Positions 3,235 through 59,450 are shown, counted from the first letter of the stretch. The stretch is DNA of 64,000 bases from Gammaproteobacteria bacterium (GCA_965207705.1 OZ242292.1:1637276-1701275); one strand, 5' to 3'. Notes: generated by a model from the sequence alone, not told the origin. A program made the numbers and translations.

Positions 3235-4518
3235 ATGCAATTAAAAGCTAATTCTCATATTGACGACCTAAGCAAATATGTCGCCGATATCGCTTCAGCT
3301 GCTCGCACTGCGGCAGCAATTATGGCAGCTGCCCCTACAGCGCAAAAAAATCATGCTCTACTCATAGCGGCTGACCTACTTGAAAAACAACGCAATAATG
3401 TTCTTGCTGCCAATAGCAAGGATATGGATAATGCCCAAAGTAACAATCTCGCTACGCCATTGTTAGAGCGTCTGGCTTTAAATGATGAAACCATTAATTC
3501 CATGATAACTTCGCTTAAGCAGGTTGCATCCTTGGCTGACCCTATTGGCGCAATCAGCGAAATGAAGTACCTGCCAAGCGGCATAAGAGTTGGCAAGATG
3601 AGGGTTCCGCTTGGAGTTGTCGGCATTATTTATGAGTCGCGTCCTAATGTTACCACTGATGCCGCTTCGCTGTGTTTGAAGTCAGGTAATGCCTGTATTC
3701 TACGTGGCGGCTCTGAAGCAATTAATTCCAACATGGCAATAGCGGAGATTATGCAAAATGCCTTGACTAAGGCAGGCCTTCCAGCGGCAGCAGCTACTCA
3801 GGTGCAGTCCACTGACCGCGCTATTATTTCGCATTTAATTTCCACTACAGATTATTTGGATGTCCTAATACCGCGCGGTGGCAAAGGACTTATTGAAAAA
3901 ATTAGCAGCGAGTCGCAGGTGAATGTTATCAAACATCTTGATGGCAACTGCCACGTGTATGTTGATAAGGACGCCAATTTAGAAATGGCGTTGAAGATAT
4001 CAGTAAACGCCAAGACCAGACGTTATGGAGTGTGCAATGCTATGGAGAGTTTGTTGGTGCATAAGCAAGTTGCCGCAGATTTTCTGCCACAGCTGGCGGG
4101 TGAATTGCAGCAGCATAAAGTTGAATTACGCGGCTGTCCGCGCGCTTGCCAGATATTGGCAAATATTAATCAGGCAACTGAGGATGATTGGTCTGAGGAA
4201 TACCTGGCTCCTATATTATCAATAAAAGTGGTAGATGATCTTAGTGCGGCTATTACGCATATTAATCAATACTCCTCGCATCACACAGATGCAATAATCA
4301 CTGATATGCATCCCAGTGGTGAGTTATTTATAAGAGGAGTGGATTCAAGCTCAGTTATGTGGAACGCCTCAACATCTTTTGCCGATGGTTTTGAATATGG
4401 TCTCGGCGCTGAGGTGGGAATTTCCACCGATAAGTTTCATGCGCGCGGACCAGTTGGTTTGGAAGGGCTAACCTGCCAGAAATTCGTAGTGTTAGGCACG
4501 GGCGAAACCCGCAACTAA
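3235..4518 (+). CDS. proA: gamma-glutamyl phosphate reductase ProA
   Basis: Aldehyde dehydrogenase-fold protein with ProA-typical segments ([39 protein letters not shown], catalytic Cys region [11 protein letters not shown]). The ORF track starts at a TTG at 3217; the ATG at 3235 is the more likely start. Confidence 0.93.
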
Positions 4519-4703: not shown

Positions 4704-6179
4704 TTGAGCTATGTTATGTATAATCTTTTTAGAAAGACGAATGTCTTAGGACGTTGCGTGTTTAATGGGGATGCCACTCAGGTAGAACAAACTACCTCAA
4801 CTAACCTTTATATTAACTGCTACATAAGAATCAGGCGATATATACTTTTTCTTGTTACCCCTATAATTCTCTTCTCTTTAATCTCTTGTACCTTAGATGT
4901 AGCTAGCACTGATGATGAGTCGCCAACATCACCTCCCTCCAGCTCTAGTAGTGTTACTGCCAAAGGGTTGAGTTCTAATTATGTAAGCATATCCTGGGAT
5001 AGCGTCTTGGGTGCCACATACTATCAAGTATATAGCAGCACAGGGTTATTAGTTGCCACTGTTTTCCTTCCTGTCACTAATTATATTGTCACAGGTCTTT
5101 TGCCCAATACTGAATACATCTACCATGTAAGAGCATGTAATGTATCGGGCTGTTCAGATTTGACCAGCGTCTCCGCAACTACTGAGACCCCACCCATTAT
5201 CAATGGTACCGCTGAAGTTCCGCCCATCATCGATGTTACCGCGGAAGTTCCACCTGTCATTAATGTTACTGCTGAAGTTTCGCCTGTCATTAATGTTACT
5301 GCTGAAGTTCCAACTATCATCAGCAATGCCGCTGAACTTGCGGCTATTGGCACTAATAGCTCCACTTTATCTGGCGACTATATTCTAACTGGGAATATAG
5401 ACCTATCCACGATATCCAATTGGCGACCCATTGGCGATAACCCATCTAACGGATTTACTGGCAGTTTTGATGGTAATGGCTATAGCATAAGCGGGCTAAG
5501 TAGTTCGGGTTATGAATATGCCGGTTTGTTTGGCTATGTAAAAGACGCCTATATAAGTAATATTGGAGTTATAGCTGGCAATATATCCTCTTCTAATACT
5601 TTCGCTTCTTCAGCAGGAGGATTAGTTGGCTATGCTTATTATAGTGATATTAGCAACTCTTATGCAGTAGTTACGGACGATATATCCGCTTATGATGGAG
5701 GAGGGTTGGTTGGCTATGCTTATTATAGTGATATTAGCAACTCTTATGCAATGGTTGCGGATGATATATCTGCTTATGATAATTATGGTTCTTCGGCAGG
5801 AGGGTTGGTTGGCAAATTTAATGATAGTAAGATTAGTAATTCTTATGCAGTAGTTGCAGGTGATATATCTGCTTCTGATGATTACGGTTCTTTGGCGGGA
5901 GGGTTGATTGGCTATTTTGTTTACAGCTTTATATCAGTGGATTACGTTAATAAGGGCGCTCCAGTTAGTAATTCTTATTACAGCGCTAGCCGTGAATATT
6001 CGCAAGGGAGTTTTAGTAACTCTTTTGGAACTTATCAGACAGTTGATGAACTGCGCGCCTTAACTGCTGTGTCTACTGGCTGGGATGGGGCTATCTGGAA
6101 TTTTGGCACTGATGCCGACCTGCCAATGTTGGTTGCTACTCCTCTTACTGTGCCTTTGCCAAGTATTTTCCATGAATAG
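4704..6179 (+). CDS. surface lipoprotein with an FN3-like domain, five 10-aa tandem repeats and GLUG-motif beta-helix repeats (paralog 1 of 3)
   Basis: Internal lipoprotein signal (RIRRYILFLVTPIILFSLISC lipobox) at aa about 45-63. An FN3-like segment is followed by TAEVPPIINV x5. Then comes the conserved PTIISNAAELAAI...YILTGNIDLS...WRPIG...FTGSFDGNGYSISGL module and repeated GGLVGYAYYSDISNSYAVV (GLUG-type) units. The true start is unclear: no ATG, GTG or TTG lies immediately before the signal peptide. Confidence 0.75.
   Translation: MSYVMYNLFRKTNVLGRCVFNGDATQVEQTTSTNLYINCYIRIRRYILFLVTPIILFSLISCTLDVASTDDESPTSPPSSSSSVTAKGLSSNYVSISWDSVLGATYYQVYSSTGLLVATVFLPVTNYIVTGLLPNTEYIYHVRACNVSGCSDLTSVSATTETPPIINGTAEVPPIIDVTAEVPPVINVTAEVSPVINVTAEVPTIISNAAELAAIGTNSSTLSGDYILTGNIDLSTISNWRPIGDNPSNGFTGSFDGNGYSISGLSSSGYEYAGLFGYVKDAYISNIGVIAGNISSSNTFASSAGGLVGYAYYSDISNSYAVVTDDISAYDGGGLVGYAYYSDISNSYAMVADDISAYDNYGSSAGGLVGKFNDSKISNSYAVVAGDISASDDYGSLAGGLIGYFVYSFISVDYVNKGAPVSNSYYSASREYSQGSFSNSFGTYQTVDELRALTAVSTGWDGAIWNFGTDADLPMLVATPLTVPLPSIFHE
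5190..5339 (+). repeat. 5 tandem 30-bp repeats (encoding TAEVPPIINV-like decapeptides) inside GLUG paralog 1
   Basis: ccacccattatcaatggtaccgctgaagtt repeated with a few substitutions five times. The last unit diverges into the conserved IISNAAEL module, so it is a possible VNTR or contingency repeat. Confidence 0.85.
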
Positions 6180-6321
6180 AATTATTATGGGCGAGGAGCT
6201 ATTTGCATCCCCCTGGTTCACCTCATTCTAGCCCCACATATATAAGAGATTTGTTATATAATAGGGCTATGCAACTTAAAGCTGGTTCTATTAGTGTAAC
6301 CCTCACAAGTCCTTTCCGCCT

Positions 6322-7104
6322 TTGAAATCATTTGCTTTTTTGGGTGGCGCCTTTGACCCTATTCATATAGGGCACTTAAGAATACTCATTGCGCTTAATG
6401 AGATTTTTAACTACACCAAACTATTCATAATGCCTTATGCTGTTTCTCCCACCGCTAAGGCATCGATTGCAGATGTCCCATCAAGGTTGGCGATGGCGGA
6501 GTTGGCGCTGAAAGGTTATAATAATTTTGCGCTGGAAAAAATTGAGGCAGCTTATGCCAACCGGGGGGACATAATGCGGGGGGATACAATAGATGCGAAC
6601 ACCAAGGAGGTAACTGCCAATTACACCGTAGATACTTTAACCCAACTGCGCCAACTTCATGGCGATGATTGTCATTTTAGTTTTATAGTGGGTGATGATG
6701 TTTATGCATCTTTGGATGAGTGGCATAAGTGGCAATCGTTATTTAACCTAACTAATATTTTGGTTATTAATAGACACGATACCTCGCCGAGCGCTGCGGT
6801 GATAAGTAACGAAAAGGGGAAGATTATTAGCAAGCAGATTGATGCGACTAAGTTATCCAATCCTAATAATTCCTCTAAATACTCACAAGATATAAACCAA
6901 GTCCATCAAGTAAACGACATGCTTAATCCGTGTGATGAGTTTATTTCCTGCCCTAATGGCGGTATAATAAAGGTTAAACTACCTGTGCTTGATATTTCCT
7001 CTTCTGATATTCGCGCTAAATTAGCGGCTGGCGAAGATACTTCATTCTTAGTTCCGCCACAGGTGTTTGAATATATTAAAATCAATCAACTATATAGAGG
7101 ATAA
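6322..7104 (+). CDS. nadD: nicotinate-nucleotide adenylyltransferase NadD (TTG start, with about 45-aa insertion)
   Basis: The N-terminus AFLGGAFDPIHIGHL is the (H/T)xGH nucleotidyltransferase motif typical of NadD, and the C-terminal SSSDIR motif is present. The gene sits in the conserved nadD-rsfS neighbourhood. At 260 aa it is longer than the usual roughly 215 aa because of a low-complexity insert. Confidence 0.85.
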   Translation: MKSFAFLGGAFDPIHIGHLRILIALNEIFNYTKLFIMPYAVSPTAKASIADVPSRLAMAELALKGYNNFALEKIEAAYANRGDIMRGDTIDANTKEVTANYTVDTLTQLRQLHGDDCHFSFIVGDDVYASLDEWHKWQSLFNLTNILVINRHDTSPSAAVISNEKGKIISKQIDATKLSNPNNSSKYSQDINQVHQVNDMLNPCDEFISCPNGGIIKVKLPVLDISSSDIRAKLAAGEDTSFLVPPQVFEYIKINQLYRG

Positions 7105-10544: not shown

Positions 10545-10876
10545 AATTCTGGTATGTTGCTTGAATTCACGACGCATTTCTGGTATGGTGTTTGAACGAA
10601 CGATGATGGTCTGTAGGGGCGGAGCTGCGCTCCGCCCGCAAAATGCATAATACTCGCGACAAACCATCAGCATGCTCGCATCGCTCTGCCCGCAAAATGC
10701 ATAACACTCGCGACAAACCCTCGCTATGCTCGCGACCTTCTTATATGTGATGCATAAATTCTTGCGACACCCGTTTGATATAATGCATAAATTCTTGCAA
10801 CACAGGTCTGTAGGGGCGGAGCTGTGCTCCGCCCGCAAAATGTATAATACTCGCGACAAACTCTCGGCATGCTCGC
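10545..10876. repeat. composite REP cluster: two full hairpin cores (10608-10660, 10802-10855), one core-less tail unit and a 27-bp tandem repeat (10549-10604)
   Basis: GGTCTGTAGGGGCGGAGCTGCGCTCCGCCCGCAAAATGCATAATACTCGCGACAAACC occurs twice, with a partial copy in between. Direct repeats CGACGCAATTCTGGTATGTTGCTTGAA and CGACGCATTTCTGGTATGGTGTTTGAA are also present. A 112-aa minus-strand ORF here is an artefact of the repeats. Confidence 0.85.
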
Positions 10877-13021: not shown

Positions 13022-13170
13022 TGTCGCGAGCTTTATACATTTTGCGGGCGGAGCGCAGCTCCGCCCCTACAGACCTATGTCGCAAGAATTCAAACAACAT
13101 ATCAAATGGGAGTCGCAAGAATTCAAACAACATATCAAATGGGCGTCGCAAGAATTTATGCGTCATAAAT
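13022..13170. repeat. REP element in reverse orientation followed by 2.6 tandem copies of a 33-bp unit
   Basis: GTCGCGAGCTTTATACATTTTGCGGGCGGAGCGCAGCTCCGCCCCTACAGACC is the reverse complement of the REP core. After it, GTCGCAAGAATTCAAACAACATATCAAATGGG(A/C) occurs twice, then a truncated copy. A 68-aa plus-strand ORF here is a repeat artefact. Confidence 0.85.
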
Positions 13171-42084: not shown

Positions 42085-43986
42085 ATGGATGTATATGATA
42101 CTGGTACCTATTTAATAGGTAAGAAATCAGGAGGTATAATTGGAGCTACAACTGGAGGCGATATTGTCAGCAATAATCACCACGGTTTTATATTCAAAAG
42201 AATATCCCCACTGCTACTTTTACTAACCTGCGTTTTGCTTCTAACTGCTTGTGCAAGTGGTAAAAGTGGTGAAAGTAATCCTGTTACAGATATTATGGAA
42301 GATGCTCCAAATTTTGAAGATTCTCCAAATTTTGAAGATGCTCCAAATTTTACTGCCTCTGTTTATAGTTTTGTAGCCATCTCCATTGATTTAGAAGGTA
42401 AAGTATTAGGCAGAGTTGAGGCAACAATTAGTGCGAATAACTCTAACCAAGCCGCTCCCAACTACGCTTATGCTGCGGATAATGGCGCAGCCGATGATAT
42501 TTTTACCCTTAACCCCACCACTGGAGACATTGCATTAAAACGCTCGCTTGTTACTGCGGATACAGGGGATTATGTTTTTGCTGTCATAGCTAAACAAAGG
42601 GGAAATTCTGCTGAAGGACGCGCTAATGTTACTGTAAAGATATTAGATATAGAAGGAGATGAGGATATGGATGGCTTCATGAATGCTTATGATGTAGCGC
42701 CAATGAATAGGACAGTTAATGTCAGCGGTACTGGCATTCCTGGCGACCCTTATATTATTAGCAATATCTATCAGCTGCAGGCAATTGACGGAGTGGATCA
42801 TAAACATAGATATCTTAACAGAACCTCCCTCGCTACTAATGGTCAGTGGTTATATGGCGCTAACCGCACTGCTCAGTTACAAAGTAGTTATCAGCTCAGC
42901 AATGATATAAATGCAAAGGTAACGCGCGACTGGAATGGAGGTGAGGGCTTTAACCCGATTGGTGATTGCGGCGGCACTTCATGTTATGCTACTCCAATAA
43001 ATCCTTTCAGTGGGGTTTTTAACGGTGCTGGTTTTACGGTGGATAATTTATTTATAAATCGCACAGAAGATGGTGAGATGAGAGGCAATATCGGCTTATT
43101 CGCTTTAACTGGTAATGCTAAGATAATGAATTTGGGGCTGGAGAATTTGAACATAACCGTGTCAGTTCTTGCTAGAGAACTTGCTACGGGAATTGGGGGA
43201 TTGATAGGAGGAACGCGAGAGGAATTACAGCAGTTAGCCGCTAATTTAAATCATGTTTATGTGACTGGGAATATACAAGCTATAGACAAGTCACCTAATT
43301 CAAACAATTCCATATATGTAGGCGGGTTAATCGGTGAGGCAATAATTAATATAGATATTAAAAATTCTTATACAATTGTTAATCTTATTGGAGGCAGCCA
43401 CCAAGGAGGTTTATTGGGGGTAAATCTTGCTAATACAAAGGTATTTAAATCATATTCACTTAATAGAATAAGTGGAACTGGGACTGGAGGAGGGTTGTTA
43501 GGAGCTGACAGGCTTAGATTTTCTCCCACTGCCTCTTATACAGTGAGTTATGCAAATACTTCTGATGATGTATTCAGCTTGGTGGGTTTGAAGGTTACAG
43601 GCAGACCAGTAGATAGCAATACCTCTTATTGGCAGAGTGAAATGGAGGGAGGGATGGTTAAAGGGGTAGTAAGAAGCTTAGATGGCACTGCGTCTAAGGG
43701 ATTAAGTGTGGCGCAACTGCAGAATTGTGAATTAGATGGGGTTATGATTGATGGCACATCTGCAGGAGTTTGTGCTGGGCTGTTTGCTGAAGGTACGGAT
43801 GCCGATCCTCTGTGGGGCGATCAAACTGAGGATGGAGTTACCACTGGTTGGGACTTTTTACCTGTTGGTGAATATCCCTATCTGTTTGCCAACGATGACG
43901 AAGGCAGAGACCTATTGCCAACAGTTGCTGAACAAAGATGCCAACGCAATAAAATTTTCTACAACCTCCCCTGCGCCACCGAATAA
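42085..43986 (+). CDS. surface lipoprotein with calcium-binding Asp-rich motifs and GLUG-motif beta-helix repeats (paralog 2 of 3)
   Basis: An internal lipoprotein signal (FKRISPLLLLLTCVLLLTAC) is followed by an EDAPNF x3 repeat. Then comes the conserved DPYIISNIYQLQAI...WNGGEGFNPIG...FSGVFNGAGFTVDNL module and G-G-L-I/L-G repeats. Confidence 0.75.
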   Translation: MDVYDTGTYLIGKKSGGIIGATTGGDIVSNNHHGFIFKRISPLLLLLTCVLLLTACASGKSGESNPVTDIMEDAPNFEDSPNFEDAPNFTASVYSFVAISIDLEGKVLGRVEATISANNSNQAAPNYAYAADNGAADDIFTLNPTTGDIALKRSLVTADTGDYVFAVIAKQRGNSAEGRANVTVKILDIEGDEDMDGFMNAYDVAPMNRTVNVSGTGIPGDPYIISNIYQLQAIDGVDHKHRYLNRTSLATNGQWLYGANRTAQLQSSYQLSNDINAKVTRDWNGGEGFNPIGDCGGTSCYATPINPFSGVFNGAGFTVDNLFINRTEDGEMRGNIGLFALTGNAKIMNLGLENLNITVSVLARELATGIGGLIGGTREELQQLAANLNHVYVTGNIQAIDKSPNSNNSIYVGGLIGEAIINIDIKNSYTIVNLIGGSHQGGLLGVNLANTKVFKSYSLNRISGTGTGGGLLGADRLRFSPTASYTVSYANTSDDVFSLVGLKVTGRPVDSNTSYWQSEMEGGMVKGVVRSLDGTASKGLSVAQLQNCELDGVMIDGTSAGVCAGLFAEGTDADPLWGDQTEDGVTTGWDFLPVGEYPYLFANDDEGRDLLPTVAEQRCQRNKIFYNLPCATE

Positions 43987-43991
43987 ACCAC

Positions 43992-44250
43992 GCATAAATA
44001 CTTGGTATATAGGTCTGCTGTAGGGGCGGAGCCAGGGGGGATGAATATAGGAACCGCCCGCAAAATGCCTAACTCTCGCGATGTACCATCGGGATACTCG
44101 CAACATACCCCTGGTATGATGCATAAATACTTGCATTGTACTTATGTTCGGTGCATAAATACTTGGTATATAGGTCTGTAGGGGCGGAGCTGCGCTCCGC
44201 CCGCAAAATGCCTAAATCTTGCGATGTACCATCGGGATGCTCGCGACACC
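43992..44250. repeat. REP pair: one element with the 15-nt module inserted into the hairpin loop, one canonical element
   Basis: The first copy is GGGGCGGAGCC-AGGGGGGATGAATATAG-GAACCGCCCGCAAAATGCCTAACTCTCGCGATG, whose loop carries the reverse complement of the CTATATTCATCCCCC unit seen at 163-300. The second copy is canonical: GGTCTGTAGGGGCGGAGCTGCGCTCCGCCCGCAAAATGCCTAAATCTTGCGATG. Confidence 0.85.
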
Positions 44251-44254
44251 GAAA

Positions 44255-45280
44255 TTAAAACTGTTCCCTAATATCCGATGTAATCGTATCCACAGAAACC
44301 TCCAACGACCGCTTAAACGGCTCTTGCCTAATCGGACATTTCTTCACTTGACAATGAGGGCACATAATCGGACGGCAAGGGTCAAAATGAAGTATAACCT
44401 CACCATTGCCTTGAGGGATTAAGAGTTTGGTAACATCTTCGTTTATCTGATGCAATTGTTTTGCATCATAATAAGAAGGGACTACTAGGTGCGCATCCAC
44501 ATAAAAAGAATAGCCCGACTTCCAGCTACGCAAATTATGAAAGTTTATCCAATGCGGCTTGGAGTGCTTAGTCAAGGATTCTGTAATACTCTGCAGCTGT
44601 CCTTCATCTGCAGTATTCATTAACTGATTTACCGCATTTTTTGTTACACTCCATCCAGTATAAAATAAAAGCAGTGAAACCAAGATTCCGATAATCGGGT
44701 CTATAATCGCCCAATCGGTAAAGTGAACTATAGTCAAGCCCACCAAGATTCCCACCGAAGTCCAGACATCAGATAACACATGCTTACCATCCGCAACTAA
44801 AGCTAAGGAGTCCAATCGCTTTCCCTGACGAATTAAATAATAGCCCAGCACCCCATTAACCACACTGGCGCCTAAAACTATAATAAGCCCTATTTCCAAG
44901 CGATAAATTGAGGGACCTTCTATGAGCTGTCCAACACTTTCAATAACAATAATGATTGCCGCCATGATAATCATGGCTCCTTCTACGCTGGAAGAAACAC
45001 CCTCCACCTTGCCATGCCCATAAGGATGATTCTTATCTGCGGGGGCATTGGCTATTTTAATTGACCATATAAGTATGATAGCTGCAACTAAATTAACTAT
45101 GGATTCCAAAGCATCGGATAAAACAGCTACTGAACCAGTTATGAGATATGCGGCAAACTTGGCGACTAACAGCAGCAATGCCACTGCCAAAGAAATTAAA
45201 GCGCAATTTAATCTCTGACGAGATTTTTGCTTGGATTGAGAGTTAGGCAACCCCCTGTTGGGAATGTTGTTTGTCTGCAT
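44255..45280 (-). CDS. cation diffusion facilitator (CDF) family divalent-metal efflux transporter with a Cys-rich C-terminal tail
   Basis: 6 TM helices with CDF signature regions and a cytoplasmic C-terminal domain ending in a [15 protein letters not shown] cluster. The start is uncertain, and the gene overlaps the 3' end of lipA by about 40 nt. Confidence 0.8.
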
Positions 45281-46217
45281 GGTAAGAAGAACGAACCAAA
45301 GGACCAGAAGCCACATTCATAAATCCCATTTTATCACCAAGTGCGGCATAGTATTGAAACTCACGCGGATGAACATAACGGGCAACTGGAAGATGAGATA
45401 AACTGGGTTGTAGATATTGTCCTATGGTTACCATGTCCACCTTATGTTGACTCAGGTCAAAAAGCATCTGTTCAACTTCTTCCATTGACTCGCCTAATCC
45501 CACCATTATGCCCGACTTAGTAGGGATGTTAGGACGTCTTTCCTTGAATAAACGCAACAAACGTAAAGACCATGAGTAGTCGGAACCAGGACGAGCTTGA
45601 CGATACAGCCGTTCTACCGTTTCCAGATTATGATTAAATACATCGGGCGGGGTTTCCTCTAAGAGTTTTAATGCAACCTCCATTCTGCCACGAAAATCGG
45701 GGACTAATATCTCTATTTTAATGTTGGGGGATTTGGCGCGAATTGCTGTAATACATTTAGCAAAGTGGTCAGCGCCGCCATCCAACAGGTCATCGCGGTC
45801 CACTGAAGTTACCACCACATACTTGAGATTCATATCGGCAATAACTTTGGCAAGATTTTGCGGCTCTTCCTCATCAAGTGCTAAGGGGCGTCCATGAGCT
45901 ACATCACAAAAAGGACAACGGCGTGTGCATATATCTCCCATAATCATAAAGGTAGCAGTTCCGCCGCTAAAGCACTCGTTCAAATTGGGACAAGATGCTT
46001 CCTCGCATACGGTGTGAAGATTATGACTACGCAGCACCTGTTTAATCTCTTCTACCTTTGGGTTTAAAGAAATCTTAATCCTGATCCAATCTGGCTTGCG
46101 GATAGGGTCAGTGGTTGGTAGTATTTTAATGGGAATACGCGCCATTTTTTCGGCAGCGCGTAGTTTAACCCCGCTGGCTAGCGGTGTTTTGCTGCGTGTA
46201 ATAAGATTTTCAGCCAT
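45243..46217 (-). CDS. lipA: lipoyl synthase
   Basis: Radical-SAM CxxxCxxC (CTRRCPFC), the additional N-terminal Cys cluster ([12 protein letters not shown]) and the C-terminal RSSY motif. Confidence 0.96.
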
Positions 46218-46419
46218 AGGGGGTATTATAACCTATATATTGTTGCGAGCATTCTGATTGTATGAACCGATAAGTACGACATAAACTGGATAGTTTGCTA
46301 CGGAAGTTAGGGGGAGGTTAGCAATGGGTGGGATAATGCCAAACTAATATAAGGCGAGCATTTTGTGGGCGGAAAAGTTGCCCTGCCTCACGGAAACTAT
46401 GTTGTTTGTTTATGTACGC

Positions 46420-46989
46420 CTATCCTGAAACGCTGACTTTCTTATTAATAAACTCCAATTCCTCTACTTCTTTATTTCTTACCTCAATATCCTCAAAACA
46501 GCTAATCGCTTCAGGTTCAGTCGTAAATGGCTTCCATCCAAGCAGCTTTTTTATTCTTTCTTCTAGCCCAGCATCAGGATATTTCTCATTTATCATATAA
46601 GCTGCTGCCAGCTTTTCCAACCTACCAATTTTTTTATCTAAAAACCAGCCAGCAATAAAATTGATTTCATCTTTGAACTTGTAATTATCTTTTTTTGCTT
46701 CAACCCACTTTTCGACATCTTCATAAAAATCATAAGCACATCCATAGCCAACTGGAGGGAAGCCCTTACTCAGTATAAAACTATCATTTAACATACGTAT
46801 CTCATCTCTTAAGTCAAAAGCATAAGGACCGTAAATATCCTGTATAAATTTGTAATCTAAAGGAACACCTAACATTCGCTGTGCAATATAACATCCTTTT
46901 TGTAAATGAATCATCCCTGCCCAACCATTTTTATCTTTTAGTGCGCCGAGCAAAAAACAAATAAAATTAACTCTATCCTTTTCTTCCAT
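46420..46989 (-). CDS. hypothetical protein; N-terminal region resembles a Panacea/DUF4065 (SocA-like antitoxin) domain
   Basis: 189 aa. aa about 25-75 (HLQKGCYIAQRMLGVPLDYKFIQDIYGPYAFDLRDEI) fit the KLQKLLY...G.PL...F..W.YGPV pattern of Panacea domains (recalled from memory, not verified). It is AT-rich and transcribed directly downstream of the HD-domain gene. Confidence 0.35.
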   Translation of the reverse strand: MEEKDRVNFICFLLGALKDKNGWAGMIHLQKGCYIAQRMLGVPLDYKFIQDIYGPYAFDLRDEIRMLNDSFILSKGFPPVGYGCAYDFYEDVEKWVEAKKDNYKFKDEINFIAGWFLDKKIGRLEKLAAAYMINEKYPDAGLEERIKKLLGWKPFTTEPEAISCFEDIEVRNKEVEELEFINKKVSVSG

Positions 46990-47078
46990 AATATACCTCT
47001 TTAATAATAACTTATATATTCTATATTAAATGTTAATAAAATATAGAAATCAATTAAACATTGTAATAACTTTTAGTA

Positions 47079-48512
47079 TTACATCTCATTAAGTAGAATC
47101 TTATCTTTATTATTCTTAATCCACTCCTTAATATCACCGCTCTTATCTGGTTTTGCAAAGATATAACCATAATCAAAATCTGTTGAAATTATATGATTAA
47201 ATATATTAGAGCAATTCTTCGCTTCCTTTATAGTTCCATCTTCTAATTTTACAGGGAAATCTAAGTTCTCATCTTTGTCAGTACTTTTGCCAATATTTTT
47301 AATAATTTCTTCAGAGAATTCCTTTAAAATTTTACTATATATTAGCTCTGTAGGAGTAGATAAATTTAACCTTTGTAGAGAATCATCTTGGATTGTTGTT
47401 TGCGCCAAATGTTCTGTAAATATCTTTTTATCATCAATATTTTGTTTGTATACTAATCTAAATCTATACTTTCTTTCTAGCAATTTATTAGCGTGATTAT
47501 GTAAGCGATGTTCGGAATTATCTTGTATCATAAATAGTTCCCTTAATATGTCAGAGTCCGTACATCGTAAATACCCTTCTGGCTTATCCTCATTAACTTT
47601 AAAATTCTCTTCTTTCATAAGTTCCTTAAGAAAACCCTGTAAATGCTCATCATATATCTTGCGGGTAGGATGCTGGTAAACCTGACTATACATCCAATGA
47701 CGAGACATTAATAAAGATTCCACCAATGGTAAATCTTTTTCATGAATACCTAAAGGAATGCTATCATTATTATCATTTAAAGGTATATCTAGGATACGTA
47801 ATGAGCGCACTAATCTATCTTTATCCACCAATCCATAAGGCACTCCAATATGACATGAATCTCTTAATAAATAGTCCATTCTGTCGGCTCCAAAAAGGTC
47901 GCTTGTTATGATACTACTCAATATTTTTTTCCAAAGCTCTTCTGGATTTTCTTCTGTCGTAAATTTAGCAGTTGCTATTGAGGATATTATTTTAGGATCT
48001 AATGTTCTGCTTCCATCGGGCGCATTAACCGGTATCTGTTCAAAAAACTCAATCATTTTTCCAGTGATTAATTCACGAGTTAGATCTTCATGATTTATTC
48101 CTTCTAATATTTTTTCTCCCGTGTGTGAAAAAGGTAAATGTCCCACATCATGACACAATGCTGCCATGCGTAATGTCTGGCGCCAATATTGCTTGTCGCG
48201 CAATTGCTCTTGAAATACTTCTCGGGATCTCTTGGTTAAATTATCGTCATCCATAACAACATCAAATATATTAGTGGCGAGTTCCATAACGCCCAATGAA
48301 TGTTCAAAACGTTTATGGCTGGCCCCTGGATAGATGAGATAGGTCATAGCAAGCTGATGAATATCTCGTAAGCGTTGAAATTGAGGGGAATCAATAACTA
48401 CTTTTTCTTCGTTAGTATAACTAACAAATTTGTGTATAGGATCACGAACTATGTGATTATTTTTCATTACATTATCTACTTTATTAAATATATACGCGCT
48501 TTTCCTTAACAC
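47079..48512 (-). CDS. SAMHD1/dGTPase-like HD-domain dNTP triphosphohydrolase
   Basis: 477 aa. The N-terminal region DPIHKFV...VIDSPQFQRLRDIHQLAMTYLIYPGASHKRFEHSLGV ... LCHDVGHLPFSH is highly similar to the HD core of human SAMHD1 and bacterial Dgt (the H...HD...D metal ligands are present). The gene is AT-rich and lies between core genes lipA and dprA. Confidence 0.8.
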   Translation of the reverse strand: MLRKSAYIFNKVDNVMKNNHIVRDPIHKFVSYTNEEKVVIDSPQFQRLRDIHQLAMTYLIYPGASHKRFEHSLGVMELATNIFDVVMDDDNLTKRSREVFQEQLRDKQYWRQTLRMAALCHDVGHLPFSHTGEKILEGINHEDLTRELITGKMIEFFEQIPVNAPDGSRTLDPKIISSIATAKFTTEENPEELWKKILSSIITSDLFGADRMDYLLRDSCHIGVPYGLVDKDRLVRSLRILDIPLNDNNDSIPLGIHEKDLPLVESLLMSRHWMYSQVYQHPTRKIYDEHLQGFLKELMKEENFKVNEDKPEGYLRCTDSDILRELFMIQDNSEHRLHNHANKLLERKYRFRLVYKQNIDDKKIFTEHLAQTTIQDDSLQRLNLSTPTELIYSKILKEFSEEIIKNIGKSTDKDENLDFPVKLEDGTIKEAKNCSNIFNHIISTDFDYGYIFAKPDKSGDIKEWIKNNKDKILLNEM

Positions 48513-48605
48513 AGTACTTCTTATTGTTAATATTCTTTATAAGGGCTTTTATTATTAATTCAAGATGTAAATTAGCTTAGTTTTGTTTATGGGGTGAATA
48601 TTTTA

Positions 48606-48848
48606 CGGGCGTAGCAAGAATTTGGACGTCATGCAGGAGTTCATCGCGAGCATGGTTATGATTTATCGCAAGAGTTAGGCATTTTGCGGGCGGAGCGCAG
48701 CTCCGCCCCTACAGACCTATATACCAAGAATTTAAGTATTATACCAAGGGTGTTTTGCAAGAATTCTGATGGTTTGTTGCGAGAGTTAGGCATTTTGCGG
48801 GCGGAGCGCAGCTCCGCCCCTACAGACCTATATACCAAGAATTTTTAA
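48606..48848. repeat. tandem pair of REP elements (reverse orientation) with shared flanking modules
   Basis: GCGAGAGTTAGGCATTTTGCGGGCGGAGCGCAGCTCCGCCCCTACAGACCTATATACCAAGAATTT occurs twice about 120 bp apart, immediately downstream of the dprA stop. Confidence 0.85.
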
Positions 48849-50041
48849 TTTCGGTGGTAGAGGTTATTTTCTTGGTATATTAGCTGGCTCAGTTCAAGCT
48901 CAATCAGCGCCGAGTTGATACTACTGACTGGTTCTTTAGTAAGTTCAGCTAACTGGTCTGCATATAAGGGTCCTTTATCCAAGACCAGGAGTATCTGCTG
49001 ACTGACGCCAGGCAGCCCCTCAGGATGCTTGCCAGGATGCCCATCGGGCGGTTTGCCAGGATGCTCATCAGCTGCTCCCGAAGCCACCTCCTCAAATAAA
49101 CCCCCAGATAATTCGCCACTCTGGCTACTTCTCGCAGTTCCTCCCCCAGCATCATTCCTTGCTGCACTCCCAACACTTCCAGCCAGCTGATACTTAATTG
49201 CCATTCCATAGCTTTGATACACTGGCTCCAGATGCTTGATTATATCTTGGTGATTTGTGGTTAGATTAGCGCCATCTTGTATCATCTTGTTGGTGCCTTC
49301 AGATAATGGCGAGCGAATAGAACCAGGTATGGCAAAAACCTCGCGCCCCTGCTCAGCGGCGAGCCGCGCCGTTATCATAGCGCCGCTTGCCAAGCCGGCT
49401 TCCACTACCAGCAACCCGAGTGTAATCCCACTAATGATTCTGTTGCGTTGAGGAAAGTTTTGTCTAAGCGGTTGCACAGAGCGCGGAAAGATTGAAACAA
49501 TAGCCCCGCCATTATCAACTATTTTGTTGGCAAGGGTGTGATGGGCGCGCGGATAGGTTATATCAATACCAGTCCCTATAATCGCAATTGTTTTGCCTCT
49601 TTTATCTAATGAATTAATATGAGCAGTCGCGTCTATGCCATAAGCCAAGCCACTTACAATGCAGATGCCATAGTCCGCCAGAGACGAGCTAAACGCAGCA
49701 GCATTCTGGACGCCTTCACGCGTGGGCTTGCGTGAGCCAACTATGCCAAAAAGCGGGAAACGTAAAAGCGTAGGGTCGCCGCGCACAAAAAGAAGCGCCG
49801 GCGCTCCTTTAGTTTGTTTTAGTAAGACAGGGTAGCGCTCATCTTCATAAGATATAAGATGATTATGCGGGCTGCTTTGCTCCCAGCAAAGATCCTGTTG
49901 GATAGTTGCGGCTAAGTAATCCTTATCCGCGGAAGATGAATATTGAGGTAAATCCTGCGACGGATAAGCCAAAGCCCGCGCCGCAGTAATACCGCAATGA
50001 AAGTAAGTTAGCCAATCCTCTATTGGTATTGGCGTTGGCAC
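48845..50041 (-). CDS. dprA: DNA processing protein DprA (Smf)
   Basis: Rossmann-like DprA core (GIVGSRKPT, SGLAYGIDATAH, GREVFAIPGS) and a C-terminal DML1-like winged-helix domain. A low-complexity insert HPGKPPDGHPGKHPEGLPG is present. Confidence 0.88.
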   Translation of the reverse strand: MPTPIPIEDWLTYFHCGITAARALAYPSQDLPQYSSSADKDYLAATIQQDLCWEQSSPHNHLISYEDERYPVLLKQTKGAPALLFVRGDPTLLRFPLFGIVGSRKPTREGVQNAAAFSSSLADYGICIVSGLAYGIDATAHINSLDKRGKTIAIIGTGIDITYPRAHHTLANKIVDNGGAIVSIFPRSVQPLRQNFPQRNRIISGITLGLLVVEAGLASGAMITARLAAEQGREVFAIPGSIRSPLSEGTNKMIQDGANLTTNHQDIIKHLEPVYQSYGMAIKYQLAGSVGSAARNDAGGGTARSSQSGELSGGLFEEVASGAADEHPGKPPDGHPGKHPEGLPGVSQQILLVLDKGPLYADQLAELTKEPVSSINSALIELELSQLIYQENNLYHRN

Positions 50042-59317: not shown

Positions 59318-59450
59318 ATGCATTTTGAATTCTTGGAACGATGGTCTGTAGGGGCGGAGCTGCGCTCCGCCCGCAAGGTGCTCAATACTTGCGACACGCT
59401 ATCCCCATGCTCGCGATAACACTATTGCCATGCTCCGCCCGCAAAATGCC
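59318..59450. repeat. REP element (full core + tail, and a second core-less tail)
   Basis: GGTCTGTAGGGGCGGAGCTGCGCTCCGCCCGCAAGGTGCTCAATACTTGCGACACGCTATCCCCATGCTCGCGA followed by TGCTCCGCCCGCAAAATGCC. Its 3' end supplies the -35 TTGACT of the downstream promoter. Confidence 0.85.

Follow-up and report, generated by a model that had tools for sequence, protein, structure and literature searches.

A SAMHD1-type HD phosphohydrolase paired with a DarG C-terminal-domain-like protein is a candidate toxin-antitoxin or anti-phage module of Bacteria and Archaea

Introduction

In the DarTG toxin-antitoxin system, the gene for the toxin DarT precedes that for its antitoxin DarG, and DarG binds and inhibits the toxin through its C-terminal domain. 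In PanAT systems, a small domain, Panacea (DUF4065), is paired with unrelated toxins, and DUF4065 proteins have been stated to be homologous to the C-terminal domain of DarG (PMC13621843, 2026). The single-gene anti-phage deoxyguanosine triphosphatase (dGTPase) is an HD-superfamily enzyme that depletes deoxynucleotides as an antiviral strategy (Tal et al.). The Clover system encodes an octameric dGTPase, CloA, which is toxic alone and is restrained via p3diT by its operon partner CloB, a nucleotidyltransferase (PMC12265719). Here we analyse a stretch of 64,000 nucleotides from a Gammaproteobacteria bacterium (GCA_965207705.1, OZ242292.1:1637276-1701275), hereafter the window, with positions counted from its first letter. 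Between lipA and dprA, the window carries two genes, one encoding an HD phosphohydrolase of the SAMHD1 family (the HD gene) and the other a 189-aa protein related to the toxin-binding domain of DarG (the partner). We consider this pair a good candidate for a new toxin-antitoxin or anti-phage module.

The pair is like PanAT in its logic, although the window partner has no match to the Panacea family PF13274. It is like Clover in being a two-gene operon of an HD enzyme and a partner, with toxicity and restraint known for Clover (PMC12265719) and proposed here; the window partner, however, carries no Pfam domain, that of a nucleotidyltransferase included, and CloA, by its published description, is an octamer-forming dGTPase. 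Unlike the dGTPase of Tal et al., the window HD protein belongs to another subfamily and is always paired with a second gene. With SAMHD1, EF1143 and 2HEK (COG1078) it shares the HD + HD_assoc_2 architecture, the catalytic motifs and the allosteric-site motif D..Q..R, but these proteins have been studied as stand-alone, nucleotide-regulated enzymes, whereas the window enzyme comes with a partner.

Results

The HD gene and the partner gene are co-oriented on the minus strand of the window. An earlier note, made from the DNA sequence alone, had placed them correctly as two open reading frames (ORFs) of 477 aa (47079-48512) and 189 aa (46420-46989) separated by 89 nt. The frame of the HD gene is open to a GTG at 48512, but translation most likely starts at the ATG at 48467, giving a protein of 462 aa (47079..48467), since most full-length paralogues measure 459-464 aa (some 479-491) and the family alignment opens at MKNNH. 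In the spacer (46990..47078), a Shine-Dalgarno-like AGAGG lies ahead of the ATG of the partner gene. A promoter and terminator scan predicted no terminator in these 89 nt, with promoter counts at chance level (12 promoter-like sites found, 12.5 expected). The scan is therefore uninformative on co-transcription.

We examined the pairing in two sets of loci. For the partner-chosen set, one genome per species was scanned and the best 80 of at least 520 confirmed loci were taken; the HD-chosen set consists of 80 metagenome loci selected by similarity to the HD protein (36-42% identity). An HD homologue lies immediately upstream on the same strand in 75 of the 80 partner-chosen loci, and an HD-family gene or remnant does so in 71 of the 76 that were evaluable. 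Conversely, the partner lies immediately 3' of the HD gene in all 78 HD-chosen loci with room downstream. Measured at 154 loci, the interval between the HD stop codon and the partner start codon has a median of -4 nt, i.e., the two genes usually overlap. A single locus exceeds 60 nt, which makes the 89-nt spacer of the window lineage atypical. The partner-chosen bacteria span Dehalococcoidia, Acidobacteriota, Planctomycetota, Desulfobacterota, Alpha- and Gammaproteobacteria, Bacillota, Actinomycetota, Nitrospirota/Nitrospinota and others, and the archaea include Methanoregula, Methanothrix, Methanosarcinales, ANME-2 and Methanofollis. The pairing is essentially obligate across Bacteria and Archaea.

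Beyond its own lineage, the identity of the HD protein drops straight to about 40%, a level shared with very diverse phyla in unrelated contexts. This abrupt drop points to horizontal spread of the pair. SAMHD1-like genes in giant-virus contigs (25-29% identity; 23 loci) have the partner in none of the 20 cases with room downstream. As in Panacea-type systems, a small protein is found in conserved adjacency to a putative toxin in a two-gene operon. The pair also has the traits of type II toxin-antitoxin systems, namely adjacent co-directional genes, a patchy and horizontal distribution and a decay-prone putative toxin, this "toxin" being unusually large at 462 aa. At one metagenomic locus (L100, 4309-7239), an intact HD gene is followed by three partner-like stretches about 1.25 kb apart; these match profile positions 1-140 only, i.e., they are divergent or shortened C-terminally.

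The two genes decay unequally. Of the 76 evaluable partner-chosen loci, 52 have an intact HD gene, 12 a deleted or truncated one and 7 a frameshifted one, and 5 have none; of 74 evaluable HD-chosen loci, 72 have an intact partner and 2 a truncated one, and none lacks it. This asymmetry exceeds the prediction from the 2.4-fold difference in gene length. In one metagenome-assembled genome (MAG) of Terriglobia (L070, 1-4964), an IS element, seen as a 3.8-kb insertion with DDE transposase genes, splits the HD gene at about profile position 300 and the partner is intact. Within the window lineage, three of nine HD copies are broken but none of the 13 partner genes falls short of full length, and two contigs (L002 and L003) carry the partner as a tandem duplicate. 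Such HD-biased decay is as expected for a costly effector with a protective partner. Among intact paralogues, the ratio of nonsynonymous to synonymous substitution rates (omega) is about 0.20 for the HD gene and about 0.35 for the partner, indicating purifying selection on both.

We next characterized the partner (46420..46989), which the earlier note had described as Panacea/DUF4065-like. A Pfam search with the 189-aa protein returned no match at E <= 1, SocA_Panacea/DUF4065 and the Macro domain included, and a search of the PDB with the single sequence returned no match; DarG was reached by the family profile only. DarG models do match the 189-aa protein, at 3.6e-7 (PADLOC) and 6.7e-6 (NCBIfam), through their C-terminal thirds only (model positions 180-307 of 329 and 185-319 of 338), with an NCBIfam score of 25.6 against a cut-off of 250. 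With a partner profile built from 16 close relatives, 687 cluster representatives were retrieved at E <= 1e-3, 311 of them at E <= 1e-10; among the 150 matches listed, nearly all are stand-alone proteins of about 175-190 aa. AlphaFold2 gave an unusable model from an alignment of 17 close paralogues (predicted local distance difference test, pLDDT, 49). When an alignment of 74 diverse members was used in its place, it gave a confident one (pLDDT 94.7; predicted template modelling score 0.90) with an N-terminal winged helix followed by a helical domain. The only strong matches of this model among solved structures, by Foldseek, were the DarG chains of the Mycobacterium tuberculosis DarT-DarG complex 7YK3, over the full length (E 7.7e-6), which gives the partner the fold of the C-terminal, DarT-binding domain of DarG. 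By sequence, the family profile matches 7yk3_B at 8.5e-5 (hhalign 92%), and the two share the motifs xQKxxYF and GPYS/A.

Thus, the partner's demonstrable relationship, by model and profile, is to the toxin-binding domain of DarG, and the Panacea impression named the right superfamily and an antitoxin-type fold without a Pfam match to bear it out. SocA_Panacea (PF13274) reached sub-threshold scores in 4 of 74 family members (best E 0.0025), no higher than 16 bits (16.1 for P0139, for example) against a threshold of 25.7, and a Pfam search with the family consensus and nine members gave one sub-threshold Panacea match, the rest being noise. A BFVD fold search with the partner found uncharacterized Sulfolobus virus proteins only and is uninformative on Panacea. 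We rejected membership in Pfam Panacea, as all scores fall below the 25.7-bit threshold, and likewise in DarG proper: the pair is like DarTG (7YK3) in the fold and motifs of the DarT-binding domain and in the order of effector then inhibitor, but the partner lacks the macrodomain, and with it the enzymatic reversal of a modification, and the gene upstream encodes an HD + HD_assoc_2 phosphohydrolase rather than the ADP-ribosyltransferase DarT (DUF4433).

The larger protein is a SAMHD1-family HD enzyme, as first suspected. It scores above threshold for Pfam HD (36.2 bits; cut-off 22) and HD_assoc_2 (36.1 bits; cut-off 23.1), and its closest solved relatives are 2hek from Aquifex, the Enterococcus dNTPase (deoxynucleoside triphosphate, dNTP, hydrolase) EF1143 (2o6i), 9mr6, which is a fungal SAMHD1 homologue (PMC12042053), and SAMHD1 itself. 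The family profile aligns with SAMHD1 over about 350 positions (E about 1e-36) and with 2hek at E 3e-81; the protein is about 40% identical to SAMHD1 across its first ~115 residues and more weakly similar further on. The motifs QFQRLR, PGASHKRFEHSLGV and HDVGHLPFSH, quoted by the earlier note, are all in the 477-aa translation, and the motifs FQRLR..QL, RFEHSLGV, HDxGHxPFSH, HE, DRMDYLxRD and Y.H are common to the protein and SAMHD1/2hek. The window protein and 18 of 18 paralogues all retain H71, H121, D122, H125, H130, H141, E142, D210, D213, Y214, R217, D218 and H221, and the metal site H...HD...D, the His/Glu catalytic residues and the motifs DRMDYLxRD and Y.H are kept in at least 95% of the 99 closest homologues from outside the lineage. 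The HD protein is thus very probably a catalytically competent SAMHD1/COG1078-type enzyme.

Its substrate can be judged from the pocket. The QL pair, RFEH, DY..RD and Y.H are conserved; by SAMHD1 numbering, we take these to contact the dNTP and exclude the 2'-OH. The conservation of catalytic and pocket motifs argues that the enzyme most likely hydrolyses dNTPs to deoxynucleosides and triphosphate. The characterized solved relatives, EF1143 and SAMHD1, are dNTPases, while the closest, 2hek, is an uncharacterized hypothetical protein. We find it improbable, therefore, that the substrate is something else, such as nucleoside triphosphates, signalling nucleotides or nucleic acid, with the partner acting as a single-stranded DNA mimic in a nucleic-acid groove. 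HD enzymes are, all the same, diverse in substrate. The C-terminal domain of DarG is reported to be a single-stranded DNA mimic (Deep et al. 2023), and SAMHD1 to bind oligonucleotides at its allosteric sites (PMC7854603).

The idea of a housekeeping dgt (dGTPase) orthologue that happens to lie beside an unrelated small gene is already refuted. Matches to dGTPase models do exist, but they are partial and weak: 27.6 bits against a cut-off of 400 for NF041026 and 38.4 against 152 for another model, and the PADLOC match is limited to profile positions 40-125 of 395, the HD motif region alone. We therefore rejected identity with the described Dgt-type anti-phage dGTPase. Nor does a housekeeping role for dgt fit with the obligate pairing or with the absence of the gene near lipA in sister lineages.

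Both proteins of the window lineage deviate from their wider families at positions that are otherwise at least 90-95% invariant. The HD protein does so at E21I, K178S, G182A, E200S, G204S, F229V, D236R, GG259-260KD, Y272H and H350R, and the partner at S57A and in the motif KPH, changed to KPF at 153-155. These lineage-specific changes may be a sign that the two proteins co-evolve where they touch.

Close homologues of the partner (60-95% identity) occur only in a handful of assemblies of 1.86-2.24 Mb, at several copies per genome. One 2.24-Mb contig carries the genes at four places, with six HD genes (three of them disrupted) and eight full-length partner genes: between two tRNA-Ser genes, with ubiA on the upstream side and a 3-dehydroquinate (DHQ) synthase gene on the downstream side; in an array alternating with 1100-aa surface proteins; between lipB and rpmF; and between lipA and dprA. 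The window segment is one copy of this dispersed cassette of about 2.4 kb, which has its own leader and ends resembling repetitive extragenic palindromic (REP) sequences. DNA homology between copies runs in the window from 48618 to 46259 (2.37 kb), with 95% identity to the copy in L001 and the same 3' endpoint in L004. The cassette encodes no recombinase, so that REP-mediated recombination or mobilization in trans are the obvious candidates for its movement.

Two of the settings deserve description. In L001, tRNA-Ser genes with GGA and CGA anticodons (4064-4152 and 6899-6988) flank one cassette, a classical setting for an integration hotspot. In L003 (1-12570; ERZ25069759 contig_1, 833968-846537), cassettes alternate with the genes of two surface-type proteins; these measure about 1100 aa each, share 71% identity and show faint fn3/Glug matches. 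One cassette has two partner genes and one a broken HD gene. This array looks like a segmental tandem duplication.

Among relatives, the lipA-dprA interval, whose comparison the earlier note had proposed, holds the pair intact, with a duplicated partner, with a truncated HD gene, or not at all. The window has the HD gene and one partner. A contig 98-99% identical to it (L002) has the HD gene and two identical partners (5340-5909 and 6001-6570; duplication unit about 661 nt), and since the window carries one copy, this duplication is a recent polymorphism by unequal recombination. The 2.24-Mb genome (L086) has a truncated HD gene and one partner, and relatives with 83-86% identical LipA have the order lipA-sodB-dprA and no cassette. 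The segment was thus rightly seen as accessory, being absent at lipA of sister lineages and variable between close strains, but it is one copy of a multicopy cassette rather than a single island. It was also rightly seen as AT-rich: the guanine-plus-cytosine (GC) content is 0.329 in the HD gene, 0.344 in the partner gene and 0.135 in the spacer, against 0.449 in lipA, 0.491 in dprA and 0.418 in the whole window.

Repeats lie at both ends of the cassette, as the earlier note had it, although the intact pair starts near 48634-48646 and not at 48606. Directly upstream of the cassette and abutting the end of dprA are two tandem REP-like units (48634..48844, minus strand; core GGCGGAGCTGCGCTCCGCCCGCAAAATGCC). 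The units (repeat families D1/D4), at 48646-48733 and 48757-48844, have a period of about 111 nt, are 90% alike and each contain a GC-rich palindrome; related copies lie in the opposite orientation at 43990-44250. The 30-nt core occurs seven times in the window, against none expected (never in 100 shuffles), at 10618-10647, 10815-10844, 13036-13065, 44183-44212, 48678-48707, 48789-48818 and 59353-59382. With a 21-nt palindrome, GGGCGGAGCGCAGCTCCGCCC, inside units of about 110 nt, the repeats are short, palindromic, intergenic and multicopy, as REP sequences are. The family palindrome reads GGGCGGAGC..GCTCCGCCC, and units occur in both orientations, frequently as tandem pairs. On the other side, 3' of the partner gene, degenerate REP-like stretches lie at about 46350-46390 and at 46223-46283.

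The cassette's own non-coding ends are conserved too. A leader of about 150 nt (48468..48618, minus strand) is common to all eight aligned cassette copies, each of which is fused to at least one REP-like unit, with the junction of leader and repeat falling within REP sequence. The leader contains a conserved TTGAAT-16 nt-TATAAA (48563-48536; hexamers read off the sequence); as the consensus scan was not above chance, we treat it as a putative promoter. The 3' tail (46259..46419, minus strand) is likewise common to the copies and holds a degenerate REP-like stretch, and the window copy ends without the last ~55 nt of tail found in five others.

A multicopy element with REP-like ends, a low GC content relative to the genome and a third of its HD copies broken raises the possibility that the cassette is a selfish, decaying repeat and the window copy a functionless passenger of REP-mediated recombination. 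This seems very improbable given that the window copy keeps both frames intact and all catalytic residues, that omega values of 0.20 and 0.35 signify purifying selection, and that the same pair is conserved across phyla.

The surroundings of the pair vary. Its immediate neighbours in 80 genomes are heterogeneous, with no conserved third gene, and a minority of them relate to defence or mobility (three OLD/Gabija-like ATPases, two HsdM, two DUF1156 proteins and two integrases). The most divergent copy of the wider lineage (L199, 1-8056) comes directly after a Type III restriction-modification (R-M) system with two Mod genes and Res and has a Fic gene about 1.1 kb downstream of the pair; elsewhere (L085, 4546-8026), the pair directly follows a Fic gene. 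These two loci look like small defence or toxin clusters. An orphan partner adjoins a Type ISP R-M enzyme (L071), and on IMG/VR contigs the pair abuts a large serine recombinase and HsdR (L172) or a tyrosine integrase (L174). On plasmid pMETHO01 of Methanomethylovorans hollandica, a partner-family gene (L198, 5998-6543; 28% identity) follows a DNA polymerase gene, and this may be a different pairing.

Within the window, a tblastn search with both proteins returned only the copy at 46420-48512, and an Rfam search found two tRNAs only, leaving the cassette without a match. Both flanks are housekeeping genes outside the cassette on the minus strand, identified in part from the Pfam families listed at the near-identical locus L002. 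The lipA product (45243..46217) is 100% identical to P0296 (LIAS_N + Radical_SAM) and about 68-70% identical to its nearest counterparts from named organisms (Thiopseudomonas, Pseudomonas), and dprA (48845..50041) corresponds to DNA_processg_A + WHD_DprA in L002. At about residues 320-345, DprA has a low-complexity insertion of HPGKxPxG-type repeats ahead of its C-terminal winged helix, and in L002 the gene is called as two pieces of 317 and 78 aa. A further ORF (42085-43986) encodes a lipoprotein-like protein of 633 aa whose family is unclear. Its identity between strains is 87-90%, compared with about 99-100% for LipA, which marks it as a fast-evolving surface protein; its likeness to the 1100-aa proteins of L003 is confined to the N-terminal signal region.

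Discussion

We lean, if modestly, towards reading the pair as a defence or toxin-antitoxin-like module whose enzyme depletes dNTPs and is kept in check by the partner. This reading rests on the partner's homology to a domain that inhibits a toxin by binding it; on the obligate, translationally coupled pairing in toxin-then-antitoxin order; on the sporadic, horizontal distribution, together with preferential HD decay and partner duplication; and on the precedent of Clover, whose dNTPase is toxic unless its operon partner restrains it. In such a module, the HD enzyme would hydrolyse dNTPs and, if unchecked, stop DNA synthesis. The partner would bind the enzyme and hold it inactive in the manner of a type II antitoxin, and its N-terminal winged helix might repress the operon as well. 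Were the partner lost, degraded or displaced, for example upon phage infection or host shut-off, the dNTPase would be released, dNTP pools would drop, and replication of the cell and of any phage would halt. Direct protein binding is the more likely form of control, as opposed to a nucleotide signal, because the partner carries no Pfam domain and has a fold like that of the DarG C-terminal domain.

Several points weigh against a toxin-antitoxin or defence role. We infer the dNTPase activity, toxicity, physical neutralization, trigger and phage-defence role, and for toxicity, binding and dNTPase activity this holds for every family member. The partner does not reach the threshold for Pfam Panacea, and none of the PADLOC or NCBIfam models recognizes the two genes together. 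Sequencing errors may account for frameshifts in MAGs, the sets of 80 loci are top-ranked rather than random draws, and the 89-nt spacer makes a single operon in the window lineage less certain. By tblastn, sequenced plasmids yielded one distant match only, which is not beside an HD gene, and GenBank phages yielded none; only four IMG/VR contigs carry the pair. Most immediate neighbours are ordinary metabolic or housekeeping genes, and enrichment in defence genes is modest. Finally, the HD protein is large, and 110 of its positions are at least 95% conserved among the 99 closest homologues from outside the lineage, which a metabolic enzyme with a regulatory subunit would fit too.

The main rival, which we judge unlikely, takes up the last three of these points (rarity on plasmids and phages, the many housekeeping neighbours and the high conservation of the enzyme) and holds that the pair encodes a regulated accessory dNTPase, with the partner serving as a transcription factor or as an allosteric, sensor or activating subunit for nucleotide-pool control or DNA repair. 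SAMHD1 and EF1143 are themselves allosterically regulated, homeostatic enzymes. A regulator of this sort, however, sits poorly with the match to the toxin-binding domain of DarG, which spans the whole partner and extends beyond the winged helix, with a sporadic and clearly horizontal distribution, and with a multicopy, decaying cassette at variable sites. Loss of the HD gene is also far commoner than loss of the partner, which would be unexpected if the partner served the enzyme only.

A bolder and rather doubtful extension of the toxin-antitoxin or defence reading would make the pair an ancient, protein-gated SAMHD1-type immunity of Bacteria and Archaea. Here, the partner, possibly a nucleic-acid mimic, would plug an allosteric, oligomerization or active-site groove and free the enzyme on a phage cue, leading to dNTP starvation. 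The dNTPase would be a bona fide toxin, and the window lineage would hold the pair as a REP-bounded, non-autonomous, self-copying cassette.

The earlier note knew of no description of such a pair. Our literature searches turned up no paper that describes it, but a comparable pairing is already listed in the supplementary table of Kurata et al. 2022 (PMC8832971), in which a "YdhJ / HD domain-containing protein" (pT33/T34) is given as an untested putative toxin beside Panacea-only proteins. These entries come from the three Firmicutes genera Ammonifex, Desulfofundulus and Caldicellulosiruptor, in toxin-then-antitoxin order with spacings of -17 to 0 nt, and their Panacea-only proteins may belong to the partner family described here; the main text of that study does not mention the HD pairing. 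None of the words Panacea, DarG, antitoxin, neighbor or clade appears in a 2026 paper on octameric dGTPases. We rate the pair as a putative Panacea/DarG-C-terminal-domain-type inhibitor joined to a new effector class. To our knowledge, what is new is the near-obligate linkage across Bacteria and Archaea, the asymmetric decay and the form of a REP-bounded multicopy cassette.

Orthologues of the pair occur in cultured organisms, including Bradyrhizobium jicamae, Chelativorans xinjiangense, Pelotomaculum propionicicum, Desulfobulbus alkaliphilus, Conexibacter arvalis and Desulfacinum infernum, which makes it directly testable. If the partner gates the enzyme, dNTP hydrolysis would join the toxin activities of toxin-antitoxin systems, and protein binding would be a second way of controlling an immune dNTPase, next to Clover's nucleotide signal. 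The C-terminal domain of DarG would then be, like Panacea, a portable inhibitor module used well beyond DarT. As the enzyme belongs to the SAMHD1 family and its pairing is essentially obligate in hundreds of bacterial and archaeal genomes, the pair could also illuminate how SAMHD1-type regulation evolved.

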